Below, one piece after another: positions 23,531-47,523 of a DNA stretch of 47,523 nucleotides. Source of the stretch: Jimgerdemannia flammicorona (lineage: Eukaryota); NCBI GenBank assembly GCA_003990765.1, contig RBNJ01000046.1, positions 1 to 47,523 of the forward strand. The letters run 5' to 3'. Numbering within the stretch: position 1 is the stretch's first letter; each line of letters begins with the position of its first letter. The notes under the pieces were generated by a model. It was not told where the DNA came from. It saw only the letters and a program-made list of their open reading frames with translations, and ran no database searches. A program made the position numbers and the translations under genes.

Positions 23531-23631
23531 AAACCTCATCCCAGGAGCAGAACCACCATATAAGAGTATCTACCAGTTGGCTTAGTCAGAGCTCAAGGTC
23601 CTCAAGGATGAACTGACCAATTTATTGATTT
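23531..23631 (+). mobile_element. Old Ty3/gypsy RT fragment (element 0), left part
   Basis: LIPGAEPPYKSIYQLA*SELKVLKDELTNLL. It continues in frame after 35699 once one GATTT TSD copy is removed. Confidence 0.8.
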
Positions 23632-24034: not shown

Positions 24035-24036
24035 CT

Positions 24037-24047
24037 TGGTAGCAGCA
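24037..24047 (+). other. Primer-binding site, probably for initiator tRNA-Met
   Basis: TGGTAGCAGCA in A and TGGTAGCAGTG in B imply ancestral TGGTAGCAGCG, complementary to a tRNA 3' end CGCUGCUACCA with the A1:U72 pair typical of initiator tRNA-Met. The tRNA identity is inference. Confidence 0.7.
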
Positions 24048-24970
24048 GGTGGTTACATCTAGCCTTATCAAGATACCTCTCAAGATATCAGTTACAATAC
24101 TATGGAGGACAATGGGTGGAATCCTTCATATAGTATCTATAGTCTAGACAATGCCTCATACAATCAGCAAGAAGAAGAGGAACAGCAAAACTCTACTTAG
24201 TTAAATGGAGTCATCAAGAGTCTTTTGCAGACTGCATTAGCTCAGATTTATAATGGTTCTAGTTTCTAAATGAGGAAGTGACTGGTTCTGGTTGACTTAA
24301 AGTAGCTCAAAGAGATACTTAAAGGTTCAAGTGTTCTTGAAGGATTTCTGGGAGAAAATATTCTGAGACTTTATTCATGAGAATAAAGGGGATATTTATA
24401 CAAGATCTAAAAGAAGAATCTGAAAGGATCTGAGAAATCAAAGGAAAATGCCAAGAGGAAAGTTCTTGGCAAAGATGATAAATAATGACAAATAAAGTTC
24501 TACAAGTTTCCAGAATATTCTATGACTAGCTAAATAAGTACTAGAGGGTGCTTGATATCAAGAAAGGATTTCTAAGCATTCAGAAAGTACTGGAAGATTA
24601 TAGAATGTTCAAGAAAGATAGAGAAAAGAAATAAACTATGCCAAAATGTTATATCTCCCCCTCCTTAAGAATCAATATTCTTGTTGAATTCTCAAAGTTA
24701 CATATAACAAACAATAAGACTAAAAGAAACTTCAAATTAAATATATCAACTCATTGGTAAGGATTGGCTATTCTTGTATGTATAAGGCAAGGGCCAAAGT
24801 ATTATCTTGATTAGATGAGAACTAGTTCGAACCTCATTAGTTACAGGATTTATAGGGTTCTCCTATATCTCTTATTTCTGATACTGTATCCCTTAGAGAG
24901 TTCCAATGTGTAATGTACCTGATCAGCACAGTAGGTCATCTACTATCCAAGGGGAGAACCTCACAGGTAG

Positions 24971-27900
24971 TCAATGAGTTTCTTTTTGCTCGAACTCTTG
25001 AATGAGGTCTTGGGAGTTCTTGAGATTGGTAGCAGGTTTCCAGGTAGTGTCATATTCAGGGTAACCCATCCACTTGACTAGGTATTCTGTGTAATGGTAT
25101 CAGACTCACTTGTCTAAGATTTTCTCAACTTCATACTTGATGTGGTCTTCAATTATGACTAGTGCTAATGGTGTTAAAATTTAGCCAGGGTATGGTGGTG
25201 ACTAGTTCCAGGCCTTGAGTTATGATATATAGAATACTGGGTGTATATGCATGGTTATTAGTAAGTTGAGACAATAAGACCAGGTAGAGACTTGCTCAGT
25301 GATCTTGAAGAGTCCAAGGTACTTGGGCTGGAATTTGGCTAACTGGTGGTTGACTTGAGATTGAGCCTTGATGTTGTCAGCTTTGAGTAGAACCATATCT
25401 CCAATATTGTATATGTCATCTCACTGCTTCTTATCTGCATACTTAACTTGATGTTGCTGAGCCTTTTATAGATTCATAGTGATGATCTTGAGAAGGAAAT
25501 CCATTTTGTCGATAAGGTTCTGGGCTGTAGGGACTTATATGTGACTGGATTGCTGGAATGAGACTAGGCTTGCAGGGGTCTTAGAGTTTTGACCATGAAG
25601 TAGCTGAAATGGGAAAAGACCAGTTGATGATTGGACAGCATTGTTGTAGATAAACTTGGCATAGGTCAGATAGTGGTCCCAATCATCTTGCTCATAAGAT
25701 ATATAGTTTCTAAGTATTTGTTCAAGTATTCTGTTCATTTGCTTGATCTGTCCATTAGTTTGAGAGTGAAAGGCAGTAGATATAGCAATTTGGGTTCCAA
25801 GAGTCTTAAAGAGTGCTTGCCAGAAGTGGCTTGTAAACTTGGGGTTGTGGTCGCTAATAATTACTCGGGAAAGTCCATAATGACAGAAGACAGTCTTGAA
25901 GAATATTCTTGCAATTTCTGGGATAATGGCATTGGTTGTAGTTGGCTTGGCAATTGTAATCTTAGTGAGACAGTCTACAAATATAACAATAGTATTATAG
26001 CCTGTTTTGGTTTGTGGGAGTTACACAATGAAGTCTATTGTGACTTGTTTGAACTTCTTGGTCAGAATTGACAGAGGTTGTAGAAGACTGGTGGGTGCTT
26101 GGTTGCTTGACTTATTTCTTTGACAAAGATTACAGCTTTGGACATACTCCTTGATTTCCTTGAGCATGTTTGGCCAGTAGTAGTCTCATTGGATATTCTT
26201 GATGGTCTTCTCAGTTCCCAAATAACCAGCTAGTGGGGAGTCATAATGTTCATGAAGAATCTTGTACTGTAGTTTAGAGTTGGTAGGAATATATACTTTG
26301 TCTTGATAGTACATGAGGTTGTCCTTGATGGTGTACTTTTCCTTAAATTCCTTAGTGTTCCTTTGTAGAACCAGAGAGTCTTATTCATATGCCTTCTTGA
26401 TCTGATTGAGGAATTCAGGTGCCATGGTGACTTGTAAAATTGCAGCAAGGTCAGGTCTTCTTGAAAGTGCATCTGGTATAACTAGAGTTTTGCTAGGCTT
26501 GTAGATGATATTTGGGATAAAGGTCTGGAGCAGTTGACTCCACTTGGCTTATTGGCAGGAAAGGGTTAGTTGAATGTTGATATACTGAAGGGACCTGTGA
26601 TCGGTGATCATGTCAAACTCAACTCCTTCTAAATAGTATCACTAGGTCTTGAGGGCATATATGATTGCCAGGAGTTCCTTTTCGTGAGTGGCCAGCTTTT
26701 GTTCTGCTGGGGACAATTTTCTTGACTCAAAGGCAATAGGTCAGTGTCCTTGACCATCATCTTGAGAAATGACTGCACTAATGGCAAAGTTAGATATATT
26801 TGTAGTAACTATGAACTTCAAGTTTGGGTCCATATTTCTAAGGATAGGTACATGGGTCAGGTGGTTCTTGAGTTCTTGAAAAGCTTGTTGACAGAAAGCA
26901 TTCCATATATAGGAGACATAGAGGTCAGAGTTGGGTTTCTTTTGCAGGAGGTTTATCAAAGATTCTGCAATGCCAGAGAAGTTCTTGACAAATCGACAGT
27001 AGTATCCAGCCAGACCAAGGAAGAACCTGAGTTCAGTGAGGTTTGCTGGTATAGGCCACTGTTTAATGGCTTGTATTTTCCTTAGGTCTACTTGAATTCC
27101 TTTGGCTGATACAATGTGTCCAAGGTATTTGACTTGATCCTTGAAAAATTCACATTTCTTAAGCTTTGCATAGAGCTTGTTTTTGCAGAGGATCTTGAGA
27201 ACTTGTTCAATGTGCTTGAGGTGTTCTTCTTTAGTACTGCTGAAGATCAGAATGTCATCAATGTACACGAGTACAAAGATATAGAGCTGATTCTTGAAGA
27301 CAGTTTGCATGAGGTCTTGAAAAGTTGCTGGCACATTAGTGAGATCAAAGGCCATAACTAGGAACTCATAGAGTCCAAAGGGGGTCATAAAGGCAGTCTT
27401 GGGTATGTCTTCTGGCTTGATTCGAATTTGGTGATACCCAGAGGTGAGATCAATCTTAGTGAAGTACTTTGCATTCTTGAGGGCATTAAAGATTTGATCT
27501 ATAAGTGGTAGCAGATAATGGTTCTTGACTGTTATCTTATTGAGTGCTTGGTAGTCTATGCATATTCACAGAGTATCATCCTTTTTCTTGACAAATAGGA
27601 CTGGAGAGCTAAAGAGTGACTTGCTTGGCTGAATGGCCCCTTGCTCAATGAGTTTATTGAGTTCCTTCTTGACTGCTTCAATTTCAAGTAGAGATATATA
27701 GTACATTTTCTTCTTAGGTATAGCTGCATCAGATACCAACTTGATTTCATAGTCATGATCTCTTGAAGGTAGCAGACCAGGTAGTTTGTCTGGGAAGACA
27801 TCCTTGTACTTATTTAGTAGTAACTTGATACTTTCACTAATTGATAGCTTCTTGTCTTTTTTCTTTGGTCAGATCAGTACCACAAAGGTACAGATAGCTT

Positions 27901-29808
27901 TCTTGAGGGCCTTCTTGAACTGAATTACTGAAAGGGTAGCAATTGGAGTTCTCGTCTGAGTCTTGTCTGGCTTGATGGTAATGTTGGCTCCATCCTGAAT
28001 CAAAGTGACTTCATTCTTGGTCCAATCAATCTGAAAGTTGTGCTATATAAGCCAAGGTTTGCCTAGGATCAGGTCATGGTCTCCTAGTAGTGCTACCTTG
28101 AAATCTAAACATTCCCAGTACTTCTGGATCTTGAGGGGAAGTTTAGCAGCAATTGAGTCAATTGGTAAGGTGGTGCCATCTGTGGTAACAACTCCACCAT
28201 TCTTGCCAACTGGTTTGGTGAGAATCTTAAGCTTGTCAATGAGGTTCTTGTTGATGAAGTTCCCAACAGCTCTACTGTCTATGAGAACATCTAGTTCTTG
28301 TCCCTTGACTAGACCTTTGAAAATGAGCATTGAATTGGCTCAGTTCTCAGCTATGCTTGTAACTTTGTCAGTGCTGCCAAAGTCTTTCTGATCTTGCTTG
28401 GTTGAAGACAGCTTGGTGACTTCTTTGATAACTGGTAGGGTGGCTTGCTCCAGAATGAGCTGTGCAATTCTGTCTCCTTCATTGATGATATATGGTTGGT
28501 TCTTGTGGTTGACTAGCAGGACTTGCATTTCACCTCAGAAGTCAGAGTCAATGACTCCAGCACCAATATCTAGTGAGTGCTTGAAACTGAGGCCAGATCT
28601 TGGTACAATTATTGCATAATGTTCCTTGGGGATTTTGACTAAAAGGCCAGTTGGAATGAGCCTTCTTTCATATGCTGAAATAGTGACCTGTTGTACTGCT
28701 TGAAGGTCCAAACCAATGGCTCCTTCTGACTGTGCTTGAGGGATCTGGGTCTTAGGGTTGACTCACATGAAATTGAGTATAACTTCTTATTCAACTGGTT
28801 GACCTTGAGTGTCTTTGGACAGGACCAGAATCCTCTTTGGTTCTGTAGTTTCCTTGGGACATTTAGTTGTAATGTGACCAGGCTGATGGCAAAAGAAGCA
28901 GGCTCCCGCCTTCTTGAGGCACTCCTTTTCCTCAGGTGTAAGCTTGTCTTTCTTGCTCTTATCGATGGTGTCTAGGTCTATGGGGGCAGGTCCAACAGTT
29001 CTGACTTTGGGTTCCTCCCTTCTGTGGTTGTTGTTGTTGAAAGGTGGTCTCTTCTATTCAAAGTGGTGACCATAGGTGATGACATCAAACCTATCAGCAA
29101 TTTTCATTGCTGTGTCTAGGTCCTTAGGTTCTTCTAGTTCAACATGAACTCAGGTTTGACCTTTCAGGTCTCAGATATACTTGTCAACCTTCTCGTCTTC
29201 AGTGACATGTGGTAGTTCTAGCAGGATTGACAGGAATTGTACATTGTATACTTGTATAGACTTGAGTTGTTTGACATTTGCCAAGCGGTCTCATGTGGTC
29301 TTAGTGCTGTTGACTGGTTTGAATTGGCCTTGAATAGCATCAGAGAATTCACCCCAGGTCTTGATTCAGTCAGAGAATCTGGTATTCTGGACATAATTTT
29401 GCCACCAGATTGTAGCATTCCCTCAGAGGAGTATGGTGGCAAATTGGACTAGTATTGCTTCTTTCAAATTGGTCAGTTCTCTATATTGCTCTAATTGGAA
29501 AAGCCAGGCATTAGTAGACAGTCCTCCTCTTTGACCATCAAAAGTGTCAGGCTTCTGAGGCTTGATAGTGACTGCTGTCAGATGTATTGATATCAGTGGA
29601 GGTATAGAGGTATGAGCAGAGGCCTTGCTTTTCTTTCTTTCTATACATTCTTAAAGTTGGGCAATCTGAGCTAATGCAGTCTGCAAAAGACTCTTGATGG
29701 ACCCATTTGACTGAGTGGGGATTGGCTGTTCTTCTTCTTCTTGCTAATTGTATGAGGTATTACCTGGACTATAGTACTGTATAAAGGGTTCCACCCATTA
29801 TCCTCCAT
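24971..29808 (-). pseudogene. Degenerate gag-dUTPase-pol-chromodomain ORF of element B
   Basis: Same domain order as A. RT YIDDILIFS is intact (ORF 26741-27388); protease LIDSRAVGNFI; dUTPase VIDSDF...GDRIAQLI...FGST. Confidence 0.92.
28367..28771 (-). pseudogene. dUTPase domain of element B
   Basis: GAIGLDL, IVPRSGLS, GAGVIDSDF*GEMQVLL, GDRIAQLI, DFGST. Confidence 0.9.
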
Positions 29809-31179
29809 AGTGTTGTGACTGATATCTTGAGAGGTGTCTTGATAAGGCTAGGTATAACTTAACCACTGCTACCAAGTGTAACAGTTCTAGTTTCTAAATG
29901 AGGAAGTGACTGGTTCTGGTTGACTTAAAGTAACTTGAAGAGATATTTAAAGATTCAAGTATTCTCAAGAATTTCTGGGAGAAAATATTCTGAGACTTTA
30001 TTCATAAGAACAAAGGGGATATTTATACAAGATCTGAAAGAAGGATCTGGAAGGATCTGAGAAATCAAAGGAAAATGCCAAGAGAAAAGTTCTCAGCAAA
30101 GATGACAAATAATGACAAATAAAGTTCTACAAGTTTCCAGGATATTCTGTGACTAGCTAAATAAGTTCTAGAGGGTGCTTGGTACCAAGAAAGGATTTCT
30201 AAATATTTGGAAAGTACTGGAAGGTTATAGAATATTCAAGAAAGACAGAGAAAAGAAATAAACTATACTAAAATGTTACAAGATTGCTCAACTTCAAGAA
30301 TGCATAGAAAGAAAGAAAAGCAAGGCCTCTGCTCATACCTCCATACTACTACTGATATCAATATATCTGATAGCAGTTACTATCAAGCTTCAGAAGCCTG
30401 ATACTTTTGATGGTCAAAGAGGAGGACTGTCTACTGATACCTGGCCTTTCCAATTGGAGCAATATGGAGAACTGACCAATTTGGAAGAAATAACACTAGT
30501 CCAATTTGCTGCTATACTCCTCCAAGGGAATGCTGTAATCTGGTGGCAAAATCATGTCTAGAATACTAGATTCTCTAGCTGAATCAAGACCTGGGGCAAA
30601 TTCTCTGATGCTATTTAAGGCCAATTCAAACCAGTCAACAGCACTAAGGCCACACAAGACTATCTGGCAAATGTCAAACAACTTAAGTCTGTACAAGCAT
30701 ACAATGCACAATTCCTGTCAATCCTGCTAGAACTACCACATATCACTGAAGATGAGAAGGTCAACAAGTACATCTGAGGCCTGAAAGGTCAAACCTGAGT
30801 TTGTGTTAAACTAGAAGAACCTAAGGACCTAGACATAGCAATGAAAATTGCCAATAGGTTTGATGTTATCACCTATGGTCACTGCTTTGAATAGAAGAGA
30901 CTGCCTTTCAACAATAACAATAACCACAGAAGGGAGGAATCCAAAGTCAGAACTATTGGACCTGCTCCCATGGACCTAGACACCATCGATAAGAATAAGA
31001 AAGGCAAGCTTACACCTGAGGAAAAGGAGTGTCTCAAGAAAACTAGAGCCTGCTTCTTTTGCCATCAGCCTGGTCACATTGCAACTAAATGTTCCAAGAA
31101 AACTGCCAAACCAAAGAGGATCCTGGTCCTGTCCAAAGACACTCAAGGTCAACCAGTTGAACAAGAAGTTGTACTCAAT

Positions 31180-31584
31180 TTCATGTGAGTCAACCCCAAG
31201 ACTCAGATCCCTCAAGTATAGTCAGAAGGAGCCATTGGTTTGGACCTTCAAGCAGTACAACAAGTCACTATTCCAGTACATGAAAGAAGGCTCATTCCAA
31301 CTGGTCTTTCAGTCGAAATCCCCAAGGAACATTATGCAAGAATTGTACCAAGATTTGGCCTCAGTTTCAAGCACTCATTAGATATTGGTACTGGAGTCAT
31401 TGATCCTAACTTCCGAGGTGAAATGCAAGTCCTACTAGTCAACTATAAGAACCAATCATATACTGTCAATGAAGGAGACAGAATTGCACAGCTCATTCTG
31501 GAGCAAGCCACCCTACCAGTTATTAAAGAAGTCACTAAGCTGTCTTCAACCAAGTGAGATCAGAAAGGCTTTGGCAGCACTGAC
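31180..31584 (+). pseudogene. dUTPase domain of element A
   Basis: All five trimeric dUTPase motifs: GAIGLDL, IVPR(F/S)GL, GVIDPNFRGE, GDRIAQLI, *DQKGFGST. In frame with the upstream zinc knuckle and the downstream protease. Confidence 0.92.
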
Positions 31585-34500
31585 AAAGTTGCAAGCATAG
31601 CTGAGAACTGAGCCAATTTAATACTCATTTTCAAAGGTCTAGTTAAGGGACATGAACTAGATGTTCTCATAGACAGTAGAGCTATTGGGAACTTCATCAA
31701 CAAGAACCTTATTGACAAGCTCAAGATTCTCACCAAACCAGTCAGCAAGAATGATAGAGTTGTCACTACAGATGGCACCATCTTACCAATTAACTCAATT
31801 GCTGCTAAACTTCCCCTTAAGATCCAGAAGTACTGGGAATGTTTAGATTTTGAGGTAGCACCACTAGGAGACCATGACCTAATCCTAGGCAAACTCTGGC
31901 TTATACGGCACAACCCTCAGATTGATTGGACCAAGAATGAAATCACCTTGATTCAGGATGGAGTCAACATTACCATCAAGCCAGATAAGACTCAGATGAG
32001 AACCCCAATTGCTACCCTTTCAGCAATTCAGTTCAAGAAGGCCCTCAAGAAAGCTACCTATGTCTTTGTGATACTGATCCGACCAAAGAAAGAAGACAAG
32101 AAGCTATCAATTAGTGAAAGCATCAAGTTACTGCTGAACAAATATAAGGATGTCTTCTTGGACAAACTACCTGGTCTACCACCCTTAAGAGACCATGACC
32201 ACAAAATCAAGTTGACATCTGATGCAGCCATATCTAAGAAGAAAATATACTATATATCTCTACTCAAAATTGAAGCAGTCAAGAAGGAACTCAATGAACT
32301 TATTGAGTAAGGAGCCATTCAGCCAAGCAAGTCACCCTTTGGCTCTCTAGTCCTATTTGTCAAGAAAAAGGATGATACTCTGTGAATGTGCATAGACTAC
32401 CAAGTACTCAACAAGATAATAGTCAAGAACCATTACCCACTACTGCTCATAGATCAAATCTTTGATACTCTCAAGAATGCAAAGTACTTTACCAAGATTG
32501 ATCTCACCTCTAGGTATCACCAAATTTGAATTAAGCTAGAAGACATACCCAAGACAGCCTTCATGACCCCCTTTGGACTCTACAAATTCCTAGTCATAGC
32601 CTTTGGTCTCACCAATTTGCCAGCAACCTTTCAAGACCTCATGCAAACTGTCTTCAAGGATCAGCTCTATATCTTTGTACTTGTGTACATTAATGATATT
32701 CTGATCTTCAGTAGTACTGAAGAAGAATACCTCAAGTATATTGAACAAGTTCTCAAGATCTTCTGCAAAAACAAGCTCTATGCAAAGCTTAAGAAATGTG
32801 AATTTTTCAAGGATTAAGTCAAATACCTTGGACACATTATATCAGCCAAAGGAATTCAAGTAGACCCAAGGAAAATACAAGCCATTGAACAGTGGCCTGT
32901 ACCAGCAAACCTCACTAAACTCAGGTCCTTCCTTGGTCTGGCTGGATACTACCATTGATTTTTCAAGAACTTCTCTGGTATTGCAGAATCTTTGATAAAC
33001 CTCCTGTGAAGGAACCCAACTCTGACCTCTATGTCCCCTATATCTGGGATACTTTCTGTCAACAAGCTTTTAAAGAACTCAAGAACTACCTGATCCATGC
33101 ACCTGTCCTTAGAAATATAGACCCAAACTTGAAGTTCACAGTCACTACAGATGTATCTAACTTTGCCATTAGTGCAGTCATTTCTCAAAATGATAGTCAA
33201 GGACACTGATCTATTGCTTTTAAGTCAAGAAAATTATCCCCAGCAGAACAAAAGCTGGCTACTCATGAAAAGGAACTCCTGGCAATTATGCATACCCTCA
33301 AGACCTAGTGACACTATCTAGAAGGAGTTGAGTTTGATGTAATCATTGATCACAGGTCTCTTCAGTATATCAACACTCAACCAACCCTTTCTTACCAACA
33401 AGCTAAGTGGAGTTAACTACTTCAGACCTTTACCCCAAATATCATCTACAAGCCTGGCAAAACTCTAGTTGTACCAGATGCACTTTCAAGAAGACCTGAC
33501 CTTGCTGCAATTTTACAAGTCACTATGGTATCTGAATTCCTCAATTAGATTAAGAAGGCATATGAACAAGACTCTCTGGTTCTACAAAGGAATACCAAGG
33601 AATTCAAGGAAAAGTACACTATCAAGGATAACCTCATATACTATCAAGACAAAGTATATATTCCTACCAACCCTGAACTATAGTATAAGATTCTTCATGA
33701 ACATCATGACTCTCCACTAGCTGGTCACCTTGGAACTGAGAAGACTATCAAGAATATCCAACAAGACTACTACTGGCCAAACATACTCAAGAAAATCAAG
33801 GAGTATATCCAAAGCTGTGATCTTTGCCAAAGAAATAAGTCAAGCAACCAAGTACCTACCAGTCTTCTACAACCCTTGTCAATTCTGATCAAAAAGTTCA
33901 AATAAGTCACAATAGACTTCATTGTGCAACTCTCACAAACCAAAACAGGCTATGATGCTATTGTTGTGTTTGTGGACCATCTCACTAAGATTATAATTAC
34001 CAAGTCAACCACAACCAATACTATTGCCTCAGAAATTGCAAGAATCTTCTTCAAGACTATCTTCTGCCATTATGGACTTCTCTGAGTAATTATCAGCAAC
34101 CATGACCCCAAGTTCACAAGCCACTTCTGGCAAGCACTCTTCAAGACCCTTGGAATCCAAATTGCTATGTCTACTGCTTTTCACCCTCAAACTGATGGAC
34201 AGACTGAGCAAATGAATAGAACACTTGAACAAATGCTCAGAAACTATGTATCTTATGAGCAAGATGATTGGGACCATTATCTGACCTATGCCAAGTTTGC
34301 CTACAACAATACCATCCAATCATCAACTGGTCTTTCCCCATTTCAGCTACTTTATGTCAAAACTCTGAGACCCCTGCAAGCCTAGTCTCATTCTAGCAAT
34401 CCAGTCACACACAAGTCTCCACAGCCCAGAACCTTATCAACAAAATGGATTCTCTTCTTAAGGTCATCACTATGAACCTGTAAAAGATTCACAATATCAA

Positions 34501-35291
34501 GCTAAGTATGTAGATAAGAAGCAGCAAGATGTCATATATAACATTGGAGATATGGTTCTACTCAAAGCCAACAACATTAAGGCTCAATCTCAAGTCAACC
34601 ACCAGTCAGCCAAATTCCAGCCCAAGTACCTTAGACCCTTTGAGATCACTGAGCAAGTCTCCACCTGGTCTTACTATCTCAACTTACCAACAACCATGCA
34701 TATATACCCAGTATTTCATATATTACAACTCAAGGCCTGGAACCAGTCACCCCCATACCCTGGCCAAATTCTGACATCATCAGTACCAGTTATAGTTGAA
34801 GACTACATTGAGTATGAAGTTGAGAAAATCTTAAACAAGTGAGTCCGATACCATCACATAGAATACCTAGTCAAGTGGATGAGTTATCCTGAATATGATG
34901 CCACCTGGGAACCTGCTACCAATCTCAAGAACTCCCAAGACCTCATTCAAGAGTTTGAGCAAAAAGAAACTCATTGACTGCCCATGAGGTTCTCCCCTTA
35001 GATAGTAGATGACCTACTGTGCTAATCAGACACATTATGCATCAGGGCTCTCTAAGGGATACAGCATCAGAAACAAGAGATATAGAAAAACCCTATAAAT
35101 CCTGCAACTAACAAGGTTCAAACCAGTTATCATCTGATCAAGATGATACTTTGGCCCTTGCCTTATATAAGGATAGCCAATTCTTGCCAATGAGTTGATA
35201 TATTTAATTTGAAGTATCTTTTAGTCTTATTGTTTTGTTATGTGTAACTTTGAGAATTCAACAAGGATGTTGATTCTTAAGGAGGGGGAGA

Positions 35292-35694
35292 TGTAACATT
35301 TTAGCATAGTTTATTTCTTTTCTTTGTCTTTCTTCAATATTCTATGACCTTCCAGTATTTTCCAAATACTTAGAAATCCTTTCTTGGTACTGAGCATCCT
35401 CTAGTACTTATTTAGCTAGTCACTGAATGCCCTGGAAACTTGTAGAACTTTATTTGTCATCATTTGTTATCTTTGCTGAGAACTTTCCTCTTGGCATTTT
35501 TCTTTGATTTCTCAGATCCTTCCAGATCCTTCTTTCAGATCTTGTATAAATATCCCCTTTGTTCTCATGAATAAAGTATCAGAATATTTTCTCCTAGAAA
35601 TCCTTTGAGAATACTTGAATTCTTAGTATCTCTTCGAGCTACTTAGAACTACCAGAACTAGTTGCTTCCTCATTTAGAAACTAGAACTGTTACA
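35292..35694 (+). repeat. 3' LTR of element A
   Basis: TGTAAC...GTTACA, preceded by the PPT and followed by the TSD GATTT. Confidence 0.95.
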
Positions 35695-35899
35695 GATTTA
35701 AGGATATATTGAACCAAGCAGATCACTCTTTGGAGTACTTATTCTTTTTGTTAAAAAAAAAAAGATAGTTCTCTACAAATATATATTAATTACTAAGCTC
35801 TCAACAAGATCACCATCAAGAATTACTATGTACTGCTCAGAATTGATGAACTACTCTATCAGATCTTTAAGGCTAAAGTCTTTTCTTTACTTGACCTTC
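35695..35899 (+). mobile_element. Old Ty3/gypsy RT fragment (element 0), right part
   Basis: GYIEPSRSLFGVLILFVKKK...ALNKITIKNYY...IDELL...AKVFSLLDL, cut abruptly by TGTAAG at 35900. Confidence 0.8.
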
Positions 35900-37973
35900 T
35901 GTAAGAGGATTACTTGTTAGGGTAACTATTATGTAGTTCTGAAAGAGTTTTCTGGAAGTTCTAGATATTCTGGAAGACTATTTTCTTAAGATCAAGATCA
36001 ATTTCATATAGAGTATATCCTCTACACTTATTGATTTCAAGATTAGGTTGATATCTCAACCAAAGTCCTTTTTCGGACTAGTTCTGGATGTTCAGGATTT
36101 TCCATATTTTAGGAAGTTCAAGAAACTAAGATCAGCTTAGTTGAATTGGCATATTGCTGCAGACAATACCCAATTAGGAATTTTCATGATGGGGTTAGGA
36201 GTAAGATCTAACAGGAAGTAGATTTACTTAAGAGTAGTTTGTGGATTATTAAATAGATTTATTTACTATTCATGATATTACTATATTAGGAGTAGTTGTA
36301 TGAAGGAATATTATGGGGAAGTATTTAGAAATGTTTTTGTATATTTGAGTCTAAGATTCTGAGATCTGGAAGAGGGGGTATTTATACCAGTGAGGAGCTA
36401 TCTGGACTATACTAAATATGGATATAATACTTAGTATCTTGTTGAGTCAGAATGCAGTTATGTAGTATAAGTGTGATCTGATATATAAAGGGATTATCTG
36501 ACTGCTGAGTCAGTTCATAGTCACATTGTATAAGGCTAATCTAACTATACTATGACTGCTAAGCTATCTATAGATTTAGATGCTATCTAGGTAGTCTTTG
36601 ATAACATCACTATTGATGGTATTATCTCTAATAAAGTAGTTATCTAGGAAGAGTTGTTTGCAGATTAATTCTCTCTGTTTACTGAGATAATAATATATTG
36701 AGACTTCATCACTATCTTACAGAATAGTATCATCTGTCTCATATACTGGGTAAGGTATTGGTGGGTAGAGAAGAGGTATGTCATCTTCACTTTTATCAGA
36801 TTTACTATCAGTATACCTTTTATAGGTAATGGTACTGTGAGTTATAGGGTTGTAATATGCTGGTAGTTGTGCTTCATATTGCTCATACTTGGGTGACAGA
36901 GTTGTTGGTTTGATCTTGAGAGTTGTCTGGAGATATAGGTTATATTCTTCTGTCTCTTCATTATAGTTGAAGTAATTAGAGATAAATGCAGGTTGATACT
37001 TATGCCAATAGTCATTATTTCAATAGATCTCATAGGTGGTTATGAACTGTTGTAAGTTCATCAGTAAGACTGATAGAGTAATCAGAATTGGTAGGGATCC
37101 TTAGCTTGAGGTCATGTCAGTATCAGAGAGATTATTATCTTCTACTTCATTATCATCAAATCAGATTATATCATAGACATCCTTCATGGCATATTCAACT
37201 TAGAGTATTTGTAGGATGTGGTTATCAGGGTACAGGAAGGTTCTATCTGTGGTCTGAATATACTTGATATATATACTTATAGTTAAGTTCTTGTATCATG
37301 TCATTGATTTGGCCATAGGACAGAGTGACAACTATTTCAGTAGTAGTAACTCAGAGGTGGGGAATAAAGGTGTTATACTTATAGAAGAGTTCTTGATGTT
37401 TGTAGGCAATAAGTTTCTGATATTAGGATATCTAGGTAATGTCTGTATTATAGTGGTGTTCAACCATGTCTTCTAGGAGGCAGCCAATCTGGTAGTAGCT
37501 TGAGATTTGTCTAATTCAGTGAGTCTCACTAAGTATGTTCAGGGTATTCCATTGGGTTTCCATAAAGTAGAGGGGTGCTAGGCTATAGATATTTATGAGG
37601 GGCAGAGGGGGTGTAGCTCAGTTGACAATAGTATTCCAAATGTCAGCATGGATACAGTTGTAGATCTCAGTGGTCATATTTGTATATATTCAAGAGTTGG
37701 GATTATTTGTTTGGTTTATTTTGGTTCTCTGTTTTGACATATCTTGGTGCTCAGTATATATATATTTGGTCTTAATTGATAAGATTCTGTTTGTATAAAT
37801 CTTGTGTTCTGTAACTTTATATTGACTCAGCTTTGTGTACTGTAACTTTGGTTTAACTCAGCTTTATGATCTTACAGGTGATTTTTAGATTTTTTCAGAG
37901 GTTATATGTGATTTTAGTGGCTTGTTCAGAGGGTGACATATGATTTCAGTGACTTGAAAGTTATGCACTTATA
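35900..37973 (-). repeat. Putative 2074-bp 3' LTR of chromovirus element C
   Basis: Ends TGTAAG (35900) and CTTATA (37968-37973, mutated CTTACA). Minus-strand PPT AAGAAGGGGAGAG at 37975-37987 abuts it. Minus-strand TATAAATA at 36379-36386; two ~31-bp tandem duplications at 37809-37870 and 37894-37956. The partner LTR is outside the window. Confidence 0.65.
36576..37740 (-). pseudogene. Decayed ~388-codon orphan ORF inside the putative LTR of element C
   Basis: ATG at 37740; readable frame MSKQRTK...SYYQIGCLLEDMVEHHY...HQELFYKYNTFIPHL...; one frameshift near 37270; a stop-free stretch of ~100 codons from 37019 to 36720; 11 internal stops by manual count. Confidence 0.55.
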
Positions 37974-38404
37974 ACTCTCCCCTTCTTAGCTTTCGACATC
38001 CTCATCAGGGCCTTCTAGTTTTGTTCTAGTATTGTTACACCATTTGGATGGTCAAAAGTCTGATAAAGTCCATTTTTCTCAGAAAGTAACATGCTTATAG
38101 TACAGTTGCCTAATATATTAAATTCATATATTAAAGGGTCATGTGTTCAATACCATATATCAGAAGTGATTCTGATGTCATTTACTACTGGAGAATTTTC
38201 TCTAAGGAATCTTCTTAAATATCTATGCCTCATTTCTCACCAGTAGTATGGAGAGAATAGACTGACTTTCAGTTTTGCTATTTTTCTAGAGAGTTAGTAT
38301 TCTTTTGTCTTGACTTGATGAGTTCTTGATTTTGTTCATGATAATTATAATGTTTAAGAAGATAATATATAGTATATACTAATAGATACAGAAGTATTCA
38401 GGTT

Positions 38405-39800
38405 TCAGTTATTCAAAGAATCATATTCTTGAACTAAGTCAGTAGTATTCTGGAGGTTAGTCTTGAGTTCCCATGTTGTATCATAGATTGAATAACCTTT
38501 TTATTTGACAAAGTACTCAGGATGGTTCTTATGACTATGTTTATTGAGAATTTATTCAATTTCATATTCTTCATGATCAAGGTGTAGGTGGTTCTATAGT
38601 TTAGTTCAGGAATAGCTTGTCATTGTTTTCATTATATTGCTTAAGATATTAGACATTGAAGACTGGGTAAACCTTAATGGTATCTAGTAGTGCCAATTTG
38701 TATGAGATTAGAGAGACTTGTGCAATAACTTTAAATAGTCTAATAAACTTACTGTTCAGCTTTGTAGATGGTCTGTGCTTGAGGTTGTCAACTCAGTATC
38801 CTCAGATGTCCAGTAGGATTTTTTCTCCAATGTTAAAAGTTTTCTCTTAATAGTGCTAGTTAATATACTATTAGTGCTCCCAATGAATTGAATCGAATCA
38901 AATTTGGCCCAAACTCGATTCGATTTGATCAAATCAAGAGTCCAATTCAATTCAATTCAAATCAAATCAAAGGTCCAATTCTATTCAAAGTTTGATTTGA
39001 ACCTTAATTTTCAAAATGTAATAACTCGACGAAAATTCATCTAAATTTAACGTATTTTAGTATGTTAGATTCATCATATTAATGTGATTCTAATAAGTTA
39101 AAGTACATTAGATTTGGATGAGTTTACGCTGAGTTATTACATTTTGAAAATTAGGGTTTGAATTAGACTCTCAATTCAATTCAACTTTTGATTCAATTCA
39201 AATTGATTTGAATTGAAAAATCCCCAATTCGATTTGACTCATTTAACTCTCAATTCGATTCGATTCAAATTGATTTGACTCATTTGAGAGCACTATATAC
39301 TGTAACTATTGTTCTTGAGCTTATGATAAATTTTTAATTGCAATCTGGCTTAGATTGTACATTCAGAGCAAGAATTCTTCAATGGCTTCAACTGTGGAGG
39401 ATTCATCAGTAGTTCACATAAGTGTTAGAGGGGTGTTTAGATTTTGTTCTGTATTGGTGAAGAATGGAGTCATTCTAAGAGAGGTTTGCTTGCTGTTATT
39501 GTAGACAAACTCAACAGCAGTAAGGTATTCATGCCAATCATCTTGTCTGTAGGAAATATAGTTCCTTAGTATTTGTTTCAGAGTTTGGTTCATTCTTTCA
39601 GTTTAGCCATCAGTTTTAGGGTAGAAGGCTATGGATAGTACAAGTTTCATTCCAAGGTATATATAGAGGGCTTTCCAAAAATAGCTGGTGAATTTCAGGT
39701 CTCAATTGCTAACAATAATCTTAGGAAGACTATGATAGTAAAAGATATTGTCAAACAAGAGTGTAGCTATGTCTGGTGCTATTGCAGTAGTAGTAGTTGG
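38405..39800 (-). mobile_element. Integrase and chromodomain of chromovirus element C (split by MITE 1, cut at 39800 by the LINE)
   Basis: APDIATLLFDNIF...LPKIIVSN*DLKFTSYFW; FYPKTDG*TERMNQTLKQILRNY; chromodomain EYEIE*IL...YFVK*KGY...TTWE..NL. Clearly a different family from A/B. Confidence 0.85.
38872..39295. mobile_element. hAT-type MITE copy 1 (424 bp)
   Basis: TIRs TAGTGCTCCCAA / TTGAGAGCACTA; 8-bp TSD TATACTAT (38864-38871) / TATACTGT (39296-39303); subterminal AATCG/AATTG/AATCA pentamers; central palindrome. Confidence 0.9.
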
Positions 39801-41471
39801 CCAATAGCACACCTTTCTCTGGTACAATTCACATTACACCAACTTCAAGTAATGGTTTTCAACACAACTCAGAGAAAAGGTATTATAAAAATATCATTGA
39901 GCAAGAGTTCCAATAGATGTGCTGGGTCAGGTAGACCCAGGACATTCAGTTGGCAGACTGTGGGAAGAGGTTATAGACTGGGGATGGGGGTCTTTGGAGG
40001 GTTGAAGGGTGGAGAAGGCTCTGGAGGAGGACTGGTATCAGGTGGAACTGGAGGAAGGCCTGGCCCCTCTAGCTTTGTAGACAAGATGAAGGTGAGTGGA
40101 TGGCCAGCTGGAACTAGAGCTGGTGCTGCTGAGGAGAAGAATAAGGCTAGTGCTAGGAGGGGGAGTAGTACTCAGGCTGGGGATGTGAGCATAGGTGCTA
40201 GAGGTGCTGTGGCTGAGAGAGTAACTATTGATGAGAGTATAATAGGGAATCAGGAAAAAAAAAGAGATATGACCAGGTGGGGCAGGGGTTCTCAAAGTAG
40301 AAGGGGGACCTGATAGTGGCACCATTGCTCAAGAAGTCAATCTCAGAGTTTGTAGCTACTTTGTGCTTCTAGGGCTTGGCAATAATGGTGAGGATGGTCC
40401 TGGGGATTATCTCAAAGCAAGTGGCTGGAGCTATCTTGGTGAAGTTCCTGAAAGGTCTGGAGGGGGTTGAGGTGGGCTTTGAGGATGCAGGCCCACTGAA
40501 AGAGGCTTTGAAGTCTGGAGTGGCAGTAGGGGAGGTAGTGGTCTCTATAGTGCAGTGCTTGAGGTGAGACCCCAGGATAGCATAGTTATTAGTAAAGGGG
40601 GTATCCACAGTGATGAAAAATGAGACTAAGAGGAGAGTGGAGGAGGTGATGGCAAAATATAGTGATGTAGTGGATATTGGTTTCCAGATATGGAAGGAGA
40701 CTACCTTCAGGATGGATGATATAGATGTCAGAATTAGACTGACTAGGAGAGAGACCACAGGGAAGATGAGTGACTGGTCCTTAATGATAATGTGGGGGGC
40801 TTTTGTCTGTAAGGTGTCAAGGGTAAAAGGGAGTGAAGAGGAAGAGGAGAACTTGTTAGAGGCTCTAGAGGAGTTAAGTGGTGCTGTTGAGAAGAGGGTG
40901 AAGGCCTAGAAGTTGTATGTAGAGTTAACATATCTGGAGATTATTGATGAGAAACATATTTGCACTGACAAGAGGTAGTGGGAGAGGGCTCAAGGATATA
41001 GGAGACAGAGGAAGCTGCTGGCAAGCATGGAGGAAAAGGCAAAGATGAAGGCTGAGGGTACTGAAAAGTCTGAGGGGATGGAGGTAAGTATCTGGGCTAG
41101 CAAGAGAGGAGGAGATGTAATGGAAGGCCTGGAGGGAGCTAGAAAGATGCTGCACAAGGACCCATTTGCTGATGACACATTTGAAGTCTGAGAATTGGTC
41201 TTGGATGACACTCCCTCTCTGGTCTAGTGGGATTCAGCTGCAAGAAGTTGGGTGGTAGAGGATGAGCTGATGAGGGGCACTCAGAGGATATATTTTAGGG
41301 TTCCTGATATATTAAAAGGTAGACAGGTGGTGGCAGTTGGTGAGGATGAGCTGGTGGATGTCCCAGAGGAGAGATGGGATGAGACTGCTAGTGTAGGGGT
41401 CAATATTATGATGCTGGATATAGGTAGGCCAGGGATACCAGGAGGGAAGAAGGTGGGGAACCTGCTGTAGA

Positions 41472-41854
41472 TAGTGCTCCCAAACAAGTTGAATCAATTC
41501 GAATCGAATCGAATTGAGGGTTAAACGAGTCAAATCGAATTGGGGATTTTTCAATTCAAATCAATTCGAATCAAATCAAAAGTTAAATTGAATTGAGGAT
41601 CTGATTTGAACCTTAATTTTCAAAATGCAATAACTCAGTGTAAACTCATCCAAATCTAACGTACTTTAGCTTGTTAGAATCACATTAATACAGTGAATCT
41701 AACAAGCTAAAATACGTTAAATTTAGATGAGTTTTCGTCGAGTTATTACATTTTGAAAATTAAGGTTTGAATCGAACTTTGAATCAAATTGGACCTTTGA
41801 TTCAATTTGAATTGAATTGAATTGGACCCTTGATTTGATTCATTGGGAGCACTA
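41472..41854. mobile_element. hAT-type MITE copy 2 (383 bp), inverted relative to copy 1, inserted in LINE ORF1
   Basis: Perfect 12-bp TIR TAGTGCTCCCAA / TTGGGAGCACTA; perfect 8-bp TSD GCTGTAGA (41464-41471 / 41855-41862). Confidence 0.93.
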
Positions 41855-44228
41855 GCTGTAGATGAGCAAGATGATGGATAACCTTGTAGCTGAGGAGTTG
41901 GGGGAAGTGGACCTGTGAGTGATAAGTGAGGAGTATTGCATAGAGATTCTGTATGGAGAGAGAGTGGTGGGGGTACTGAAGGCAGAGATCCTTGTGATTT
42001 TCCTGGAGGAAGAGAGATATGAGGTAGATAAGGAGAGGGAGGTAGAACTGGCAGTTATTGCTAGTGAGCAGGCTGCCTACTATTGGGTAGAGTATCATGG
42101 TTTACAACTCTGGCAAGAGGCATACCTAGAGTATTGAGAGGACTTTGAGGAAAAAGAGGATGGGGTGATGGCTGAACTTCTGGTAGGATTAGAGGTATAG
42201 GCAGCTGAAGAAAAGGTACTGACTGCAGAATATAACTTAGACTTAGTATATATAAATTTATAGAGATTGAGATTAATAATTAATATTATTCTTTATGAAC
42301 AGTATAACTAATATTTTCTCTCTAAATGTAAATAGGTTATAGGGATCTGGGCAGTATAAGAACATTTTTACTTAGCTTAAGAGATTGGAGGCTGATCTCT
42401 TTTTACTATAGGATATATGGTGTGGGGATGAGGAAGATTGAGTAGAGTGGACTAGAGAATGGAGAGAAGCTACTGCTTGGAGTGACAAAGTGACAATTCT
42501 GGTGAAGAAGGGTAAAGGAGATTTGGGTGGAATCAGGAGCTGGGGTAATCATTTGGTCTGGGGAGAATGATATTGACCTGGGTGGGAATCAATGTGGGTT
42601 GGCTCCTACTACTGCCCTGTAGTTAGAGGTGAGTGGATTGAGTAGATTAGGGATCTTTTAAAGGAGGGCATTCTCTTGGAAGAAGGCATCAATATTCTGG
42701 GAGGTGATTTTAATATGGTGTGGGATCCAAGGTTAGATAGAACTAATGGAGAGAGGAGTGTAGGTAGGAGGAGTGGTGGTCTGGATAAGTGGGAGAAGGT
42801 GGAGAACCTTAACTCCTTAGGAGATATGGACAGAATACAGTGGGGCAATACAAGAGTCTATATGCATTGGGTGAATGGACTGGGTATAAGGATTGACTGG
42901 ATTCTGATGGCCAAATATTGGGGTGTTGATGTTTGGAGGACTCTAGAGGTAGAGTGGTGCCCATGGTCTAATCACTAAAGGTTATTGAGGCAGGGGCAGT
43001 TTGGGGAGAGTAGAGATGAACTTGGATATTGGTGCCTTAACTTCTCTCTACTGGCTGAGAAGGTGTTGTGAGACTTATGGATAGAGGACATTCAAGCAAA
43101 GATTATTAACTGAACACATAAAAGTTCATCTGTGGGTGTCCATTAGATGAGATTAAAGGAGGCTATAAGGGTTTATTGGGGAGGAGCTGGTAGAGAGGCT
43201 GGGAGGCAGAGAAGGAAGTAAGTAAGGTGTGCTTCTAATAGGCTGATTATATTGTAGATGAAATGGGCAGATTTGCTTTCTTCCAATGAGATGGAGAATT
43301 GGAGGCTAGAGAGGGCAAAATTGGAGATAGTGGAGCTGCAATAGATTTTAAGAGAGGAGGAGGAGATTCATATGAAAGAAATGGCTACCAGACTATGGTG
43401 GCAGGAGCTTGAGGAGGGAGAGCAGCCTACTAGGTACTTGTCTAGGCTCCTCTAAGCTAGGAGGATATGATATTGATGGGATGGAGTCTTTGATACTGAG
43501 GGAGAAATGGTGCATGGCACACAACAGATCTTAGGAGTACTGAAGGAGAGATAGAGGGGTCTATGGAGTGAGGAGGAAGAGGGTGCAGTTGAAGAGGTGA
43601 TTGGAGACATACTGGAGGAGTGAGAACCACTACAAGTAGAGGGACTTGGTGACTTGATCATACTGGTCCAAGAGGAGGAGATCTAGAGAGTTCTTGCAGC
43701 AACTGAACTTAGGACAGCACTAGGAGAGGATGAGTTACCTTGGGACTTCTGGAAGAAGATGGCAAAGGTCCCTGGAGTGTTAGGAGAGATGGCTGCTCTC
43801 TGTAACCATGTTCTTCTAAATGGTACATAGGTTGGAGAGCAGGACTTAGGGCTGGTGGCCTTATCATACAAAGACAAGGGGAGGAGGGAGGACTGGAAGA
43901 ACTGGAGACCAATCATACTTCTAGATATGGATAGGAAGATAGTGACTAAGGTGATTATTACAAGGCTACAGAAGGTTGCCCAATAGGTACTGGGTGAGGA
44001 CAGGGCTTTGTTGAAGGCAGACTTATCAGAGATGAGACTGCCTGAGTGTACAGCATCATTGAAGAGATATGAGCTTGTGGACTGGATAGAAGACTGGTCT
44101 TTTTGGACCAGGAGAAAGCCTATGACTATATTAGATGGGTATTGCTGGGCAAGGTGCTGGATAGAATTAGTGTTCTCTCATGATTTTGAGCTTCTATATT
44201 AAATCTGTTGGAGGGCAGTAGGGCTGTG

Positions 44229-45716
44229 AGAAATGGTGTTAGGGAATAGGCTAGTGGGAGGGGATGTCATTGAAACAATTGTCCCCACAGGAGAGATGGT
44301 GTGGTATTTGGACATCTTTCTTTCTATATGTAGATCTGCCTTGCCATAAGTATGGTGGGAGAGAAGAGTGGCCATTTGGGGAGAGGCTCTTAGAGATTGG
44401 GGGGGTTGTCACATCTCCCTGGCAGAGCAGGTGTCAATTCTGAATGTCTACTGGTTTCCCAAGCTATGGTATGTGGCCTATCACTTAGACTTCCCAGCTT
44501 GGGTGGTAAAGAGACTGATGAAACTGGTTAGAGATTGGATTTGGACAGAGAGGAGGTCCCAGATCAGTTGGGATACTCTTGTAATACTGATGGTTAGGAG
44601 TGGACTAGATCTTGTGGATTTCCCTAAGCAGCTGTACTGCCTGTGGGCTTGGTGGTTGAAAAGGGCTATTGAACTACAGGGAGGTAGTTGGGTGCCGCTA
44701 ATGCAGAAGATGTGGGAGATGAGGTTCTCTCCTCAGGGGTTCTTAGGAGATTTGCTCTCTCTGGTGGGTCTGACTGGATGCTGATAGCTATGGTATAAGG
44801 GCTTCTGGTGAGAGGTGGTGGATGGAGCACACCAGATAGGCCTGCACTGATGAGGTAATGAAGGGGAGGTGCTGTGGGGTCCAGCTATGTAGTGATGAGA
44901 CAGACTCCTTCTGGGGGGCGTTCTGCTTACTGAGTTTGATATTAGTGATGGAGTGGAGTATCAGCGGGGTCTTGGCCAGAATCTTTGGCCAAGTAGTTAG
45001 CAGGCTGTAGGGATTGGTGAGGAGTGGGACTGGGCAGGAGTCTGGTCATAGAGTGCTGAGGTGTGGTGGTAGCTTTCTCCCAAGTTCTGGGTAGTATGGT
45101 GGCAGATGCTGAGGAGGAATGTCATGTTAAATTTCTATACTGAGCATCTAGTAGAGGGTGGCTGATTAGATTGTGAGGAGTGTTATAATATAGGGCAAGT
45201 TGGGGGATTTGTGCAAACACCTAAACATTGGCTGGGAGAGTGTGAGGTTCTGGGGGACTTTTGGATAGTAGTAGGGAATTAGCTGGGTATAGAGAGGAGA
45301 CCAGATAGAGAGAGAGATCACTGGGAGGATTTGAAATCTTGGCTAGTGAGTGGTGTGGGCAATGGTTGGCTCACTGTAGGGTGGGTTTTAGTAGTATAGA
45401 TAGGACTGGCTGGACATTAGCTCTTTGTTTTTAAGGAGAGGTGACAGATAGGTTTACAGGAGAAGTTGTTAAGGTGGGAGGAGTTGATGGGGGATCTGCT
45501 GACTGAGTGGTGGGTGGGTTGGGGTCCTCAGGGTGGTAAATGTTGCCACCTGGTGGAAGGAATTTGTGAATAGAGTGGTGGGCAGATAGAGATGGTGTTA
45601 GACAAAGTAGTCTTTTATTGAGTAAGGGGCCCCCCTAGGGGGATTGGATAGGGTTGGGCATTGTATATTATTTAGAAGATAGATGGTATATTAATAAAGG
45701 AAGAAGTCTAAGTGAC

Positions 45717-45756
<40 letters not shown>
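44229..45756 (+). mobile_element. 5'-truncated LINE copy of the same family, inserted in the host LINE RT
   Basis: Homologous to ~46065-47523; AATAAA at 45693-45698; poly(A) at 45720-45756; flanked by the 18-bp direct repeat GAGGGCAGTAGGGCTGTG (44211-44228 / 45757-45774). Confidence 0.92.
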
Positions 45757-45760
<4 letters not shown>

Positions 45761-47523
45761 GCAGTAGGGCTGTGCTGATATGTAATGGTCACCAGGGTTT
45801 GGCTTTTTCCTTAGGAAGAGGAGTTCCTCAGAGAGACCTGCTGTCTCCTATCCTTTATACCCTTTCATTGGAATCTTTGATGGATAGGATATGTATGATA
45901 GAAGGTGGCTGGGCTCTTTATGTATAGTATAGTGTGGAAGATGGGGGTCTTTGCAGATGATATGATAGTTGGACTTGGATCAGTGGCAGATGTTGAGGCA
46001 CTTAAGGATATGGTGGAATGGTATGAGGCACACTCTGGGGCAAAACTCAACTGGCATAAGTGTGAGACAATGGTTTTGGAGAATGGGCTAGTAGGAGGAG
46101 ATGTTATTGGAACAATTGTCTCTACAGAAGAGGTAGTGCAATATCTGGGTATCTTTCTTTCTATATATGAATCTGTTTTGCCATAAGTGTGGTGATAAAG
46201 GAAGGTGGCCATATAGAGGGAGGCCCTTAGAGATTGGGGAGGTCACCACATCTCCCTAGTGGGTCAGGTATTGATTTTGAATGTCTACTGATTCCCCAAG
46301 CTATGGTATGTAGTCTATCACTTAGACTTTCCAGCTTAGGTAGTGAAGAGACTGATGAAACTGACTAGAGATTAGATTTGGACAGGGAGGAGCTCTAGGC
46401 CTTGTGGACTTTTCTAAGAGACTGCACTGCCTACAAGCTTAGTGGTTGAAAAGAGCTGTTGAACTGCAAGAAGGGGGTTGGGTGCCACTGATGCAGAAGG
46501 TGTAGGAGATGAGATTCTCCCCTCAGGAGTCATTAGGAGATTTGCTATCTCTGGTGGGTCTGGATGGAAGCTGACAGATGTGGTATAAGGGCTTCTGGTG
46601 GAGGGTGATAGATGGAGTACACTGCATTGGCCTATGTTAGAGAAGCAATGAGAGAGAGATACTGTGGAGACCAGCTATGTGGAGATGAGACAGATTGCTT
46701 CTGGGGGGCATTCTACTTGCTGAGTTTGATATTAGTGATGGAGTAGAGTATCAGTGGAGTCTTGGTCTGGATATTTAGCCAAGTAGTTGGCAGATAGTGA
46801 GGATTGGTGAGGAGTGAGACTGGGCAGGAGTCTGGTCATAGAGTGCTGAAGTGAGGAGATGGATTCCTCCCAAGTTCTGGATGGTATGGTAGAGGATACT
46901 GTAAAGGAATATTATGTTGAATTTCCATACTAGTCATCTGATGGATGGTGGCCATCTAGATTGTGAGGAGTGTTATAATATAGGACAAGTTGGGAGTTTT
47001 GTGCAGATATCAGAACATTGGCTGGAAGAATGTGAAGTTCTGAGGGACTTTTGGATAGTAGTGGGAGATCAGCTGGGTGTGGAGAGAAGGCCAGATAGAG
47101 AGTAAGGGCACTGGGAGGATTTTAAATCTAGACTAGTAGATAGTATGGGAAATGAATAGCTCACTGTAGGGTGAGTTTTAGTTATTTAGGTAGGGCTGGC
47201 CAGATACTGGCTCTTTGTTTTTGAGGAGAGGCAATAGATAAGTCTGCAAGAGAAGTTGTTAAGATGGGAGAGGTTGATGGGTGATTTATTGTCAGAGTGG
47301 TGGGTAGGCTGGGGTCTCCAGGGTGGGCATTATTACCATTTGGTAGAAGAGATATATGAACAGAGCAGTGGGCAGGTTATGTTGGTTAATAATCTTATGG
47401 TCTTTAATTGAGAAGGAGTAGAAGGAGGAGGGCCTCTAGGGGGATTGGATAGGGGTGTGCTCAATGTATTTATATAGGATAGATTGGTGTATTAATAAAG
47501 AAAGGAGTCCAAGAGACTATAAA

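Follow-up and report, generated by a model that had tools for sequence, protein, structure and literature searches.

In Jimgerdemannia flammicorona, contig RBNJ01000046.1 (assembly GCA_003990765.1) carries the 3' end of a Ty3/gypsy-type retrotransposon, element C, which is followed on the same strand by a decayed open reading frame (ORF) that is the subject of this report. The stretch analysed, here called the window, comprises positions 1 to 47,523 of the forward strand of the contig; the region studied is 35900-37987 (2088 nt), read on the minus strand of the window. An earlier note on this DNA had proposed that the region is a ~2.07-kb long terminal repeat (LTR) of element C and that its U3 part encodes an accessory protein of ~388 amino acids. 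The purine tract, the tandem repeats, the ATG, the TATAAATA box and the reading frame on which this proposal was built were all found on the minus strand where it had placed them (Table 1), and one unit of the tandem repeats contains a TGAGTCA/TGACTCA site.

The minus strand of the 2088-nt region contains 789 A, 594 T, 451 C and 254 G, a composition that predicts 0.066 stop codons per codon, or ~25 per 388 codons, the same figure that had been estimated before. The proposed path starts in frame 1 at 37740 and continues in frame 2 to a terminal TAA, and our recount agreed with the earlier one, giving one frameshift, 11 stops (six TGA, four TAA and one TAG) and a stop-free run of 100 codons (37019-36720). 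In 300 first-order Markov sequences of the same 2088 nt, an open run of 100 codons was attained five times, and in none of the 300 could 388 codons be read with no more than one shift and equally few stops (10 in this count); the null paths had a mean of 18.7 stops and a minimum of 11. The low stop count of the frame is more than chance. The excess arises in the distal two thirds of the path, and codons 1-135 (37740-37336) contain six stops against ~8.9 expected, which is chance level.

Table 1. Features of the region studied, of element C and of the rest of the window (positions as in the window; for minus-strand features the higher position is generally given first).
Feature	Position	Strand	Evidence or remark
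Supported ORF, ~251 codons, dead	37335-36576	minus	P0002 alignment over whole 247 amino acids
Internal stops of supported ORF	37202 TAA, 37163 TGA, 37103 TAA, 37022 TGA, 36719 TAA	minus	
Terminal stop of ORF, TAA	36578-36576	minus	
Candidate N-terminal extension, frame of ATG 37740	37431-37336	minus	metagenome contig readings
4-nt insertion in TA repeat, cause of shift from frame 1 to frame 2	37263-37270	minus	tblastn/alignment with P0002
Start codon of the earlier note, ATG	37740-37738	minus	
Polypurine tract AAGAAGGGGAGAG	37987-37975	minus	13 nt; 417 nt past pol stop
Two tandem repeat pairs	37802-37865 (31 nt x 2.1) and 37894-37956 (32 nt x 2.0)	minus	
TATA-like TA run, then AATAAA	37766-37754, then 37720-37715	minus	3' of tandem repeats
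TATAAATA	36386-36379	minus	
Distal block	35900-36575	minus	promoter/R/U5-like part of putative LTR, or separate short LTR
Distal-block signals	TGASTCA 36512-36506 and 36449-36443, TATAAATA 36386-36379, AATAAA 36263-36258, CTTACA 35905-35900	minus	
Element C, pol 3' fragment: integrase core, integrase C-terminus, chromodomain	38405-39960	minus	translation and Pfam
Element C, pol stop TGA	38407-38405	minus	
Element A2, Gypsy	23631-24248 and 30281-35694	plus	target duplication GATTT (5 bp); self-BLAST and junctions
Element A1, Gypsy, nested in A2	24249-30280	minus	self-BLAST
dUTPase domain of element A	31222-31557		Pfam E 3e-28
373-bp repeat, two copies	38928-39300 (in C integrase) and 41467-41839 (in LINE-like element)		ATCAA-type 5-mer runs
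LINE-like element	40001-47523	plus	endonuclease/exonuclease/phosphatase E 8e-5, 22.9 bits, below 24.5 cutoff
Mot1/BTAF1-like gene	12014-17384	minus	DUF3535 E 2.9e-73; Helicase_C E 5e-23
F-box-like ORF	7316-8668		

A protein search with the distal 226 codons, in which stops were read as X, gave one match among 56 candidates, an open metagenome protein of 247 amino acids designated P0002 (E 3.8e-63, 100% coverage). An exhaustive HMMER search over 1.84 billion cluster representatives returned P0002 as its sole match (E 1.9e-67). BLASTP of P0002 against the window frame aligned 225 residues, 116 of them identical and 160 positive, and over its whole length P0002 is identical at 136 of 247 residues, the overall identity being given as 52-54%. 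By tblastn, residues 5-30 of P0002 matched the first frame and residues 21-247 the second, and because this match spans both frames the frameshift is real and lies where it had been placed before. In the alignment, residues 1-22 of P0002 fall in frame 1 and residues 21-247 in frame 2. Exactly at the frameshift site, one contig from the soil metagenome is missing 1+3 nt.

In P0002, Gln, Gln, Trp and Trp stand opposite four of the five internal stops of the ORF, and the fifth stop falls at an alignment gap. At the 111 residues where P0002 and the window differ, C>T/G>A changes toward the window account for 54 and changes in the opposite direction for 18, and 39 fit neither, which indicates that the window copy is the deaminated one. 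The earlier note had attributed the TGA stops to decay of CGA codons; this origin was rejected for the two TGA stops that could be checked, since P0002 has Gln and Trp there, not Arg.

Further readings of the ORF came from the soil-metagenome run X1, which had a 0.09 share of words and whose habitat is no evidence of anything; 2789 of its short contigs, with at least 80% likeness, were placed on 35000-40200. Each listed ORF position is covered by 5-29 distinct contigs, indicating that the gene is a member of a repeated family, and the stop TAA at 37103 reads CAA in all 29 contigs that cover it. On this sequence evidence the frame is genuine, multi-copy protein-coding sequence that is dead and decayed in this copy, as the earlier note had proposed: P0002 matches it end to end, no null sequence equalled it and its stops stand opposite Gln and Trp. 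It could otherwise have been a chance low-stop stretch in AT-rich, G-poor DNA that encodes nothing, a view to which the strand's stop frequency of just 0.066 per codon, the recurrence of the 100-codon run in 5 of 300 nulls and the lack of a Pfam family would lend themselves. The P0002 matches in the protein search, BLASTP, tblastn and HMMER ruled this out, and it is extremely improbable in view of an independent, open homologue of full length (E 1e-63 to 1e-67), of a low-stop path attained in 0 of 300 nulls and of where the stops fall. Other searches for relatives gave no confirmed match: 589 pattern matches to the ORF among metagenome contigs of the Joint Genome Institute and 154 among viral contigs yielded none, a transition-tolerant DNA pattern from 36115-36160 had no match in the contig scan, and none of 485 candidates for longer (fused) forms of P0002 was scored.

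The ORF is shorter than the 388 codons claimed for it. Homology begins at 37335, where the first Met of P0002 aligns to an ATA (37335-37333), and the 135 codons upstream are at chance level; because P0002 starts there and no low-stop signal lies upstream, the supported ORF comprises ~251 codons, possibly ~283. The larger figure comes from six to seven of the soil-metagenome contigs, which have ATG for ATA at 37431-37429, CAA for TAA at 37425 (six contigs) and the synonymous TAC for TAT at 37422 (seven contigs). These readings hint at a start at 37431 instead of 37335, and they leave the TGA at 37353, within the candidate extension, unexplained. In Pfam, the sole library searched with the frame 37740-37336, no family scored above the cutoff.

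Two single contigs of low depth skip sequence in the region. One skips 117 nt (39 codons, in frame) within the ORF at 36761-36879, and another skips 219 nt in the tandem-repeat region at 37640-37860.

The properties of the product were read from P0002, which has an isoelectric point of 4.05 and a net charge of -35.8, contains 26 Asp, 20 Glu, 23 Tyr, 24 Pro and 0 Cys, and reaches a maximum 19-residue Kyte-Doolittle hydropathy of 0.97. It belongs to no Pfam family and had no match in a PDB profile search; Pfam on the window frame gave only noise below the cutoff (Peptidase_M3_N, E 0.012; UPF0302, E 0.016). AlphaFold2 on the two-sequence alignment gave a mean predicted local distance difference test score (pLDDT) of 29.9, and the Atlas model, with a pLDDT of 0.39, had no feature match and a template modelling (TM) score of at most 0.30. 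The product is thus predicted to be a disordered, Tyr/Pro-rich and Cys-free protein of ~250-280 amino acids. An Env-like ORF was rejected for its lack of a signal or membrane segment (maximum hydropathy 0.97) and of Cys and for its charge of -36, and a Gag-like ORF of the nucleic-acid-binding kind because the product is acidic and has no zinc knuckle. That the frame matches no Gag, Pol or Env had been said before and is borne out by the Pfam, protein and HMMER searches, which gave only P0002; the gene is an orphan with a single known relative among the 1.84 billion cluster representatives. For the anti-silencing or trans-activating function suggested in the earlier note, only the acidic, aromatic-rich composition would be compatible with an activation-domain-like role. 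The product would most likely act by protein-protein contacts, perhaps as a decoy or as a factor resembling an acidic/aromatic activation domain.

Element C, on whose sense strand the ORF lies, is a 3' fragment. Its pol ends with a chromodomain (Pfam Chromo, E 8.5e-9, 35.6 bits, cutoff 25.1) at 38566-38420, residues 479-527 of the frame from 40000, and as this follows integrase-like sequence the element can be classed as a chromovirus, a chromodomain-bearing Ty3/gypsy element. It is truncated at ~39960 by insertion of a long interspersed nuclear element (LINE)-like element; because this occupies the window from ~40000 to its end, the 5' half and the 5' LTR of C lie outside the window. Past pol, AAGAAGGGGAGAG is the best of seven purine runs of at least 8 nt in 38410-35695, with as many G in only 40 of 2000 shuffles. 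It is close to AAGGAGGGGGAGA, the purine tract abutting the verified 3' LTRs of element A, a neighbouring Gypsy family with two copies in the window, A1 and A2, that are ~90% alike and have 403-bp LTRs. The polypurine tract (PPT) of the earlier note is credible, and it follows a chromodomain-bearing pol. The ORF starts 1.07 kb past the integrase-chromodomain stop and ~640 nt past this tract.

Several features of the sequence beyond the tract are consistent with a single long LTR. TATAAG (37972), which lies 1 nt beyond the purine tract, matches CTTACA (35905-35900) as its inverted complement if a single G>A change is allowed, and the same decay is seen in the element copy A1 (TGTAAC>TATAAC). 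Base composition is even over 37974-35900 (minus-strand C 0.21-0.24, G 0.11-0.13) and changes at either end. Three of the window's ten TGASTCA sites fall in these 2.1 kb, and two of them sit 57-126 nt upstream of TATAAATA in the distal block, where AATAAA comes after them in an order like that of a promoter.

A number of observations weigh against an LTR of this extent. Self-BLAST found no second copy of 35900-37987 in the window, which does not include the 5' end of C, where the directly repeated copy that defines an LTR would lie; a repeat scan of 35695-38410 gave only short pairs at chance level. The terminal inverted repeat is not significant: in the alignment test 244 and 247 of 300 shuffles did as well, and the 2.27 kb contains CTTACA at two places and its decay-tolerant form at six. 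The summed depth of X1 contigs is a hint only, since it is not copy number and cannot rank the parts; it is very uneven, at 105-300 over pol, rising to 370-870 for 37957-37262, falling to 40-250 within the ORF and reaching 1200-2700 in 36565-35870, where one LTR unit should have even depth. The LTRs of element A next to it are 403 bp, and to our knowledge ORFs inside LTRs are rare. The gene itself fills less of the region than had been claimed, with P0002 starting at the residue aligned to 37335 and codons 1-135 of the path at chance level, and Pfam, PDB, AlphaFold2 (pLDDT 29.9) and Atlas (TM at most 0.30) give no support for a function. Rfam had no match, and a bacterial promoter/terminator scan, which is irrelevant here, found 12 signals against 13.5 expected, a chance level.

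These observations leave room for other placements of the ORF. The ORF and the distal block might form a separate repeated element, D, ending at 35900, with C's own 3' LTR being short (37972 to before 37431) and merely abutting D. This would suit a window that is a nest of insertions, with A1 in A2, A2 lying 205 nt past 35900, and the LINE-like element and the 373-bp repeat in or next to C; an LTR of 540-640 bp with tandem repeats, a TA-rich box (37766-37754) and AATAAA (37720-37715) would also be ordinary. Depth over 37957-37262 is ~2-3 times that of pol, as for an LTR, and depth over the ORF is at or below that of pol, although depth is not admissible as copy number. However, there is no CTTACA-like terminus in 37790-37431, the composition of 37974-37336 is like that of the ORF and distal block and unlike that of pol, no recognisable PPT precedes the distal block of D, and C would need to have landed within ~100 nt upstream of the intact ORF start in the same orientation. 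We regard such an element as unlikely, if still worth serious consideration.

The ORF might also be internal to C, standing between pol and a short 3' LTR (~36525-35900, TGTGAC...CTTACA), in the manner of an ORF3, in which case the tract at 37987-37975 would not be the plus-strand primer. Extra ORFs after pol are the usual Ty3/gypsy arrangement in the account given in PMC5718144, and PMC2864245 (Figure 3 legend) indicates an additional ORF, its function unknown, among full-length fungal Gypsy elements. The ORF stops ~50 nt before the TGTGAC at 36525, and the distal block forms a unit by itself, having a TATA box, AATAAA and two TGASTCA sites, and has by far the highest contig depth (which is no copy number). 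Yet 36668-36075 contains no purine run of at least 8 nt and nothing PPT-like precedes 36525, and transitions cannot change purines to pyrimidines. The strong PPT at 37987-37975, like that of element A, would have to be a coincidence, and TGTGAC fits the inverted CTTACA worse than TATAAG does, and we find an internal ORF rather unlikely. An LTR of 1.44 kb (37972-36529, TATAAG...CTTATA) could contain the ORF and leave the distal block (36525-35900) as a separate, abundant neighbour element: CTTATA at 36534-36529 matches TATAAG exactly as an inverted complement, with TGTGAC 3 nt further on, and a step in contig depth (again no copy number) lies nearby. This version is very unlikely, as there are six occurrences of the decay-tolerant terminus motif within 2.27 kb, the 5-nt flanks of the distal block (TACAA and GAAGG) are unequal, with no target-site duplication seen, composition does not change at 36529 and a good TATA box would be excluded from the LTR.

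Taking all versions together, the evidence is near balance, and not in favour beyond that, on whether the ORF lies inside an LTR of C. Our preferred explanation, offered tentatively, is that the ORF is the dead accessory gene of a repeated retroelement at minus strand 37335-36576, perhaps from 37431, and that it stood in the U3 of a 2.07-kb LTR; the gene is real, multi-copy and decayed and is placed after pol and the PPT, and we infer its membership of the LTR, its route of expression and its function. The exact version in which a 2.07-kb LTR with the ORF inside runs from the TATAAG at 37972 to the CTTACA at 35900 follows if the PPT is taken at face value, and we hold it a shade more tentatively. 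The gene would then lie in U3, with the TGASTCA-TGASTCA-TATAAATA promoter and the AATAAA of the LTR itself downstream of it, and the RNA of the element would include the gene in its 3' part. The repeats and TA-rich box that precede the gene may also have driven its transcription, with transcripts ending at the poly(A) signal of the LTR. The copy in the window was killed by deamination-type C>T/G>A decay (CAA>TAA, TGG>TGA/TAA) together with the 4-nt insertion. Somewhat more doubtful is the wider proposal of a chromovirus family with a lineage-specific gene for a highly acidic, disordered protein in the U3 of a 2-kb LTR.

The ratio of observed to expected CpG is 1.06 in the genic part (1 to ~23350), which contains the Mot1/BTAF1-like gene, with a HEAT repeat match below its cutoff (E 3.8e-4, 20.9 bits, cutoff 23.5), and the F-box-like ORF; it is 0.02-0.07 in the large transposons of 23631-47523, a contrast that fits transposon-targeted cytosine methylation and deamination. 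In 35695-37987 the corresponding TpA ratio is 1.09 against 0.70-0.75, and because TpA is also raised, decay there is not confined to CpG. A2 is a later insertion that cuts the flank 205 nt past the putative LTR end, and domains like the dUTPase of element A are reported for some basidiomycete and Tuber Gypsy elements in PMC2864245. The two copies of the 373-bp repeat are 90% alike inverted and 80% alike direct, so the repeat is palindromic; the copy at 38928-39300 has a CpG ratio of 1.05 against 0.00-0.22 around it and looks like a young insertion of the miniature inverted-repeat transposable element type. In the LINE-like element strand skew is extreme (plus-strand G 0.33, C 0.12) and runs counter to the skew of the LTR elements, which are poor in G on their sense strands, and the LINE-like element contains a direct duplication (44225-45722 and 46061-47523) of ~80% identity.

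As far as is known, additional ORFs of Ty3/gypsy elements sit before the PPT and the 3' LTR, whereas here the only PPT-like tract, a strong one, stands upstream of the ORF. In other respects the ORF resembles them: it follows pol on the sense strand, has no known function and shows no relation to gag or pol. It lies outside gag-pol and on the same strand past the Chromo domain, and it is present in more than one copy, as P0002 and many diverged X1 contigs indicate. Among the cases described are extra ORFs after pol in plant elements and ORF3 in rotifer elements (PMC5718144, citing Steinbauerova et al. and Rodriguez et al.) and an additional ORF whose function is unknown in full-length fungal Gypsy LTR retrotransposons (PMC2864245, Figure 3 legend). 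The protein family found here is unrelated to any described one by the Pfam and HMMER searches. The Boty-like (BcGypsy1) retrotransposons of Botrytis cinerea carry an extra gene, brtn, besides gag and pol (PMC8365987), and brtn is antisense according to the title of Zhao et al. 2011, cited there. Compared by description only, both are extra genes on fungal Gypsy-type elements, but brtn is antisense and the present ORF is sense.

The closest parallel for a gene inside an LTR comes from mouse mammary tumor virus (MMTV), in which an ORF of the 3' LTR, sag, encodes a superantigen (PMC2191060, PMC2191119), described as a type II membrane protein (PMC2191119). If the ORF of element C does stand in a long LTR, the two would be alike in having an accessory ORF past the PPT, in the U3 of a long LTR, and duplicated with it. 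They differ in that there is no sequence relation, P0002 being the only relative of the present product among the 1.84 billion representatives, and in that this product is strongly acidic, has no hydrophobic segment and comes from a host that is not a vertebrate. In the literature on LTR-borne ORFs of retrotransposons we found no fungal case, which is a weak negative.

Extra genes on LTR retrotransposons show how such elements gain functions, and very few have a known role. If the ORF does not lie in a long LTR, it is an ordinary orphan additional ORF of a Gypsy-type element. If it does, each of the two LTRs would have received the gene and solo LTRs would retain it, an organisation for which MMTV is the main known example. 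Any such LTR, even a solo one, would then amount to a complete expression unit with upstream repeats and TA box, ORF and poly(A) site. The architecture would resemble that of MMTV sag while standing outside the vertebrate retroviruses, and the product of the gene could be a trans-activator or a silencing decoy.

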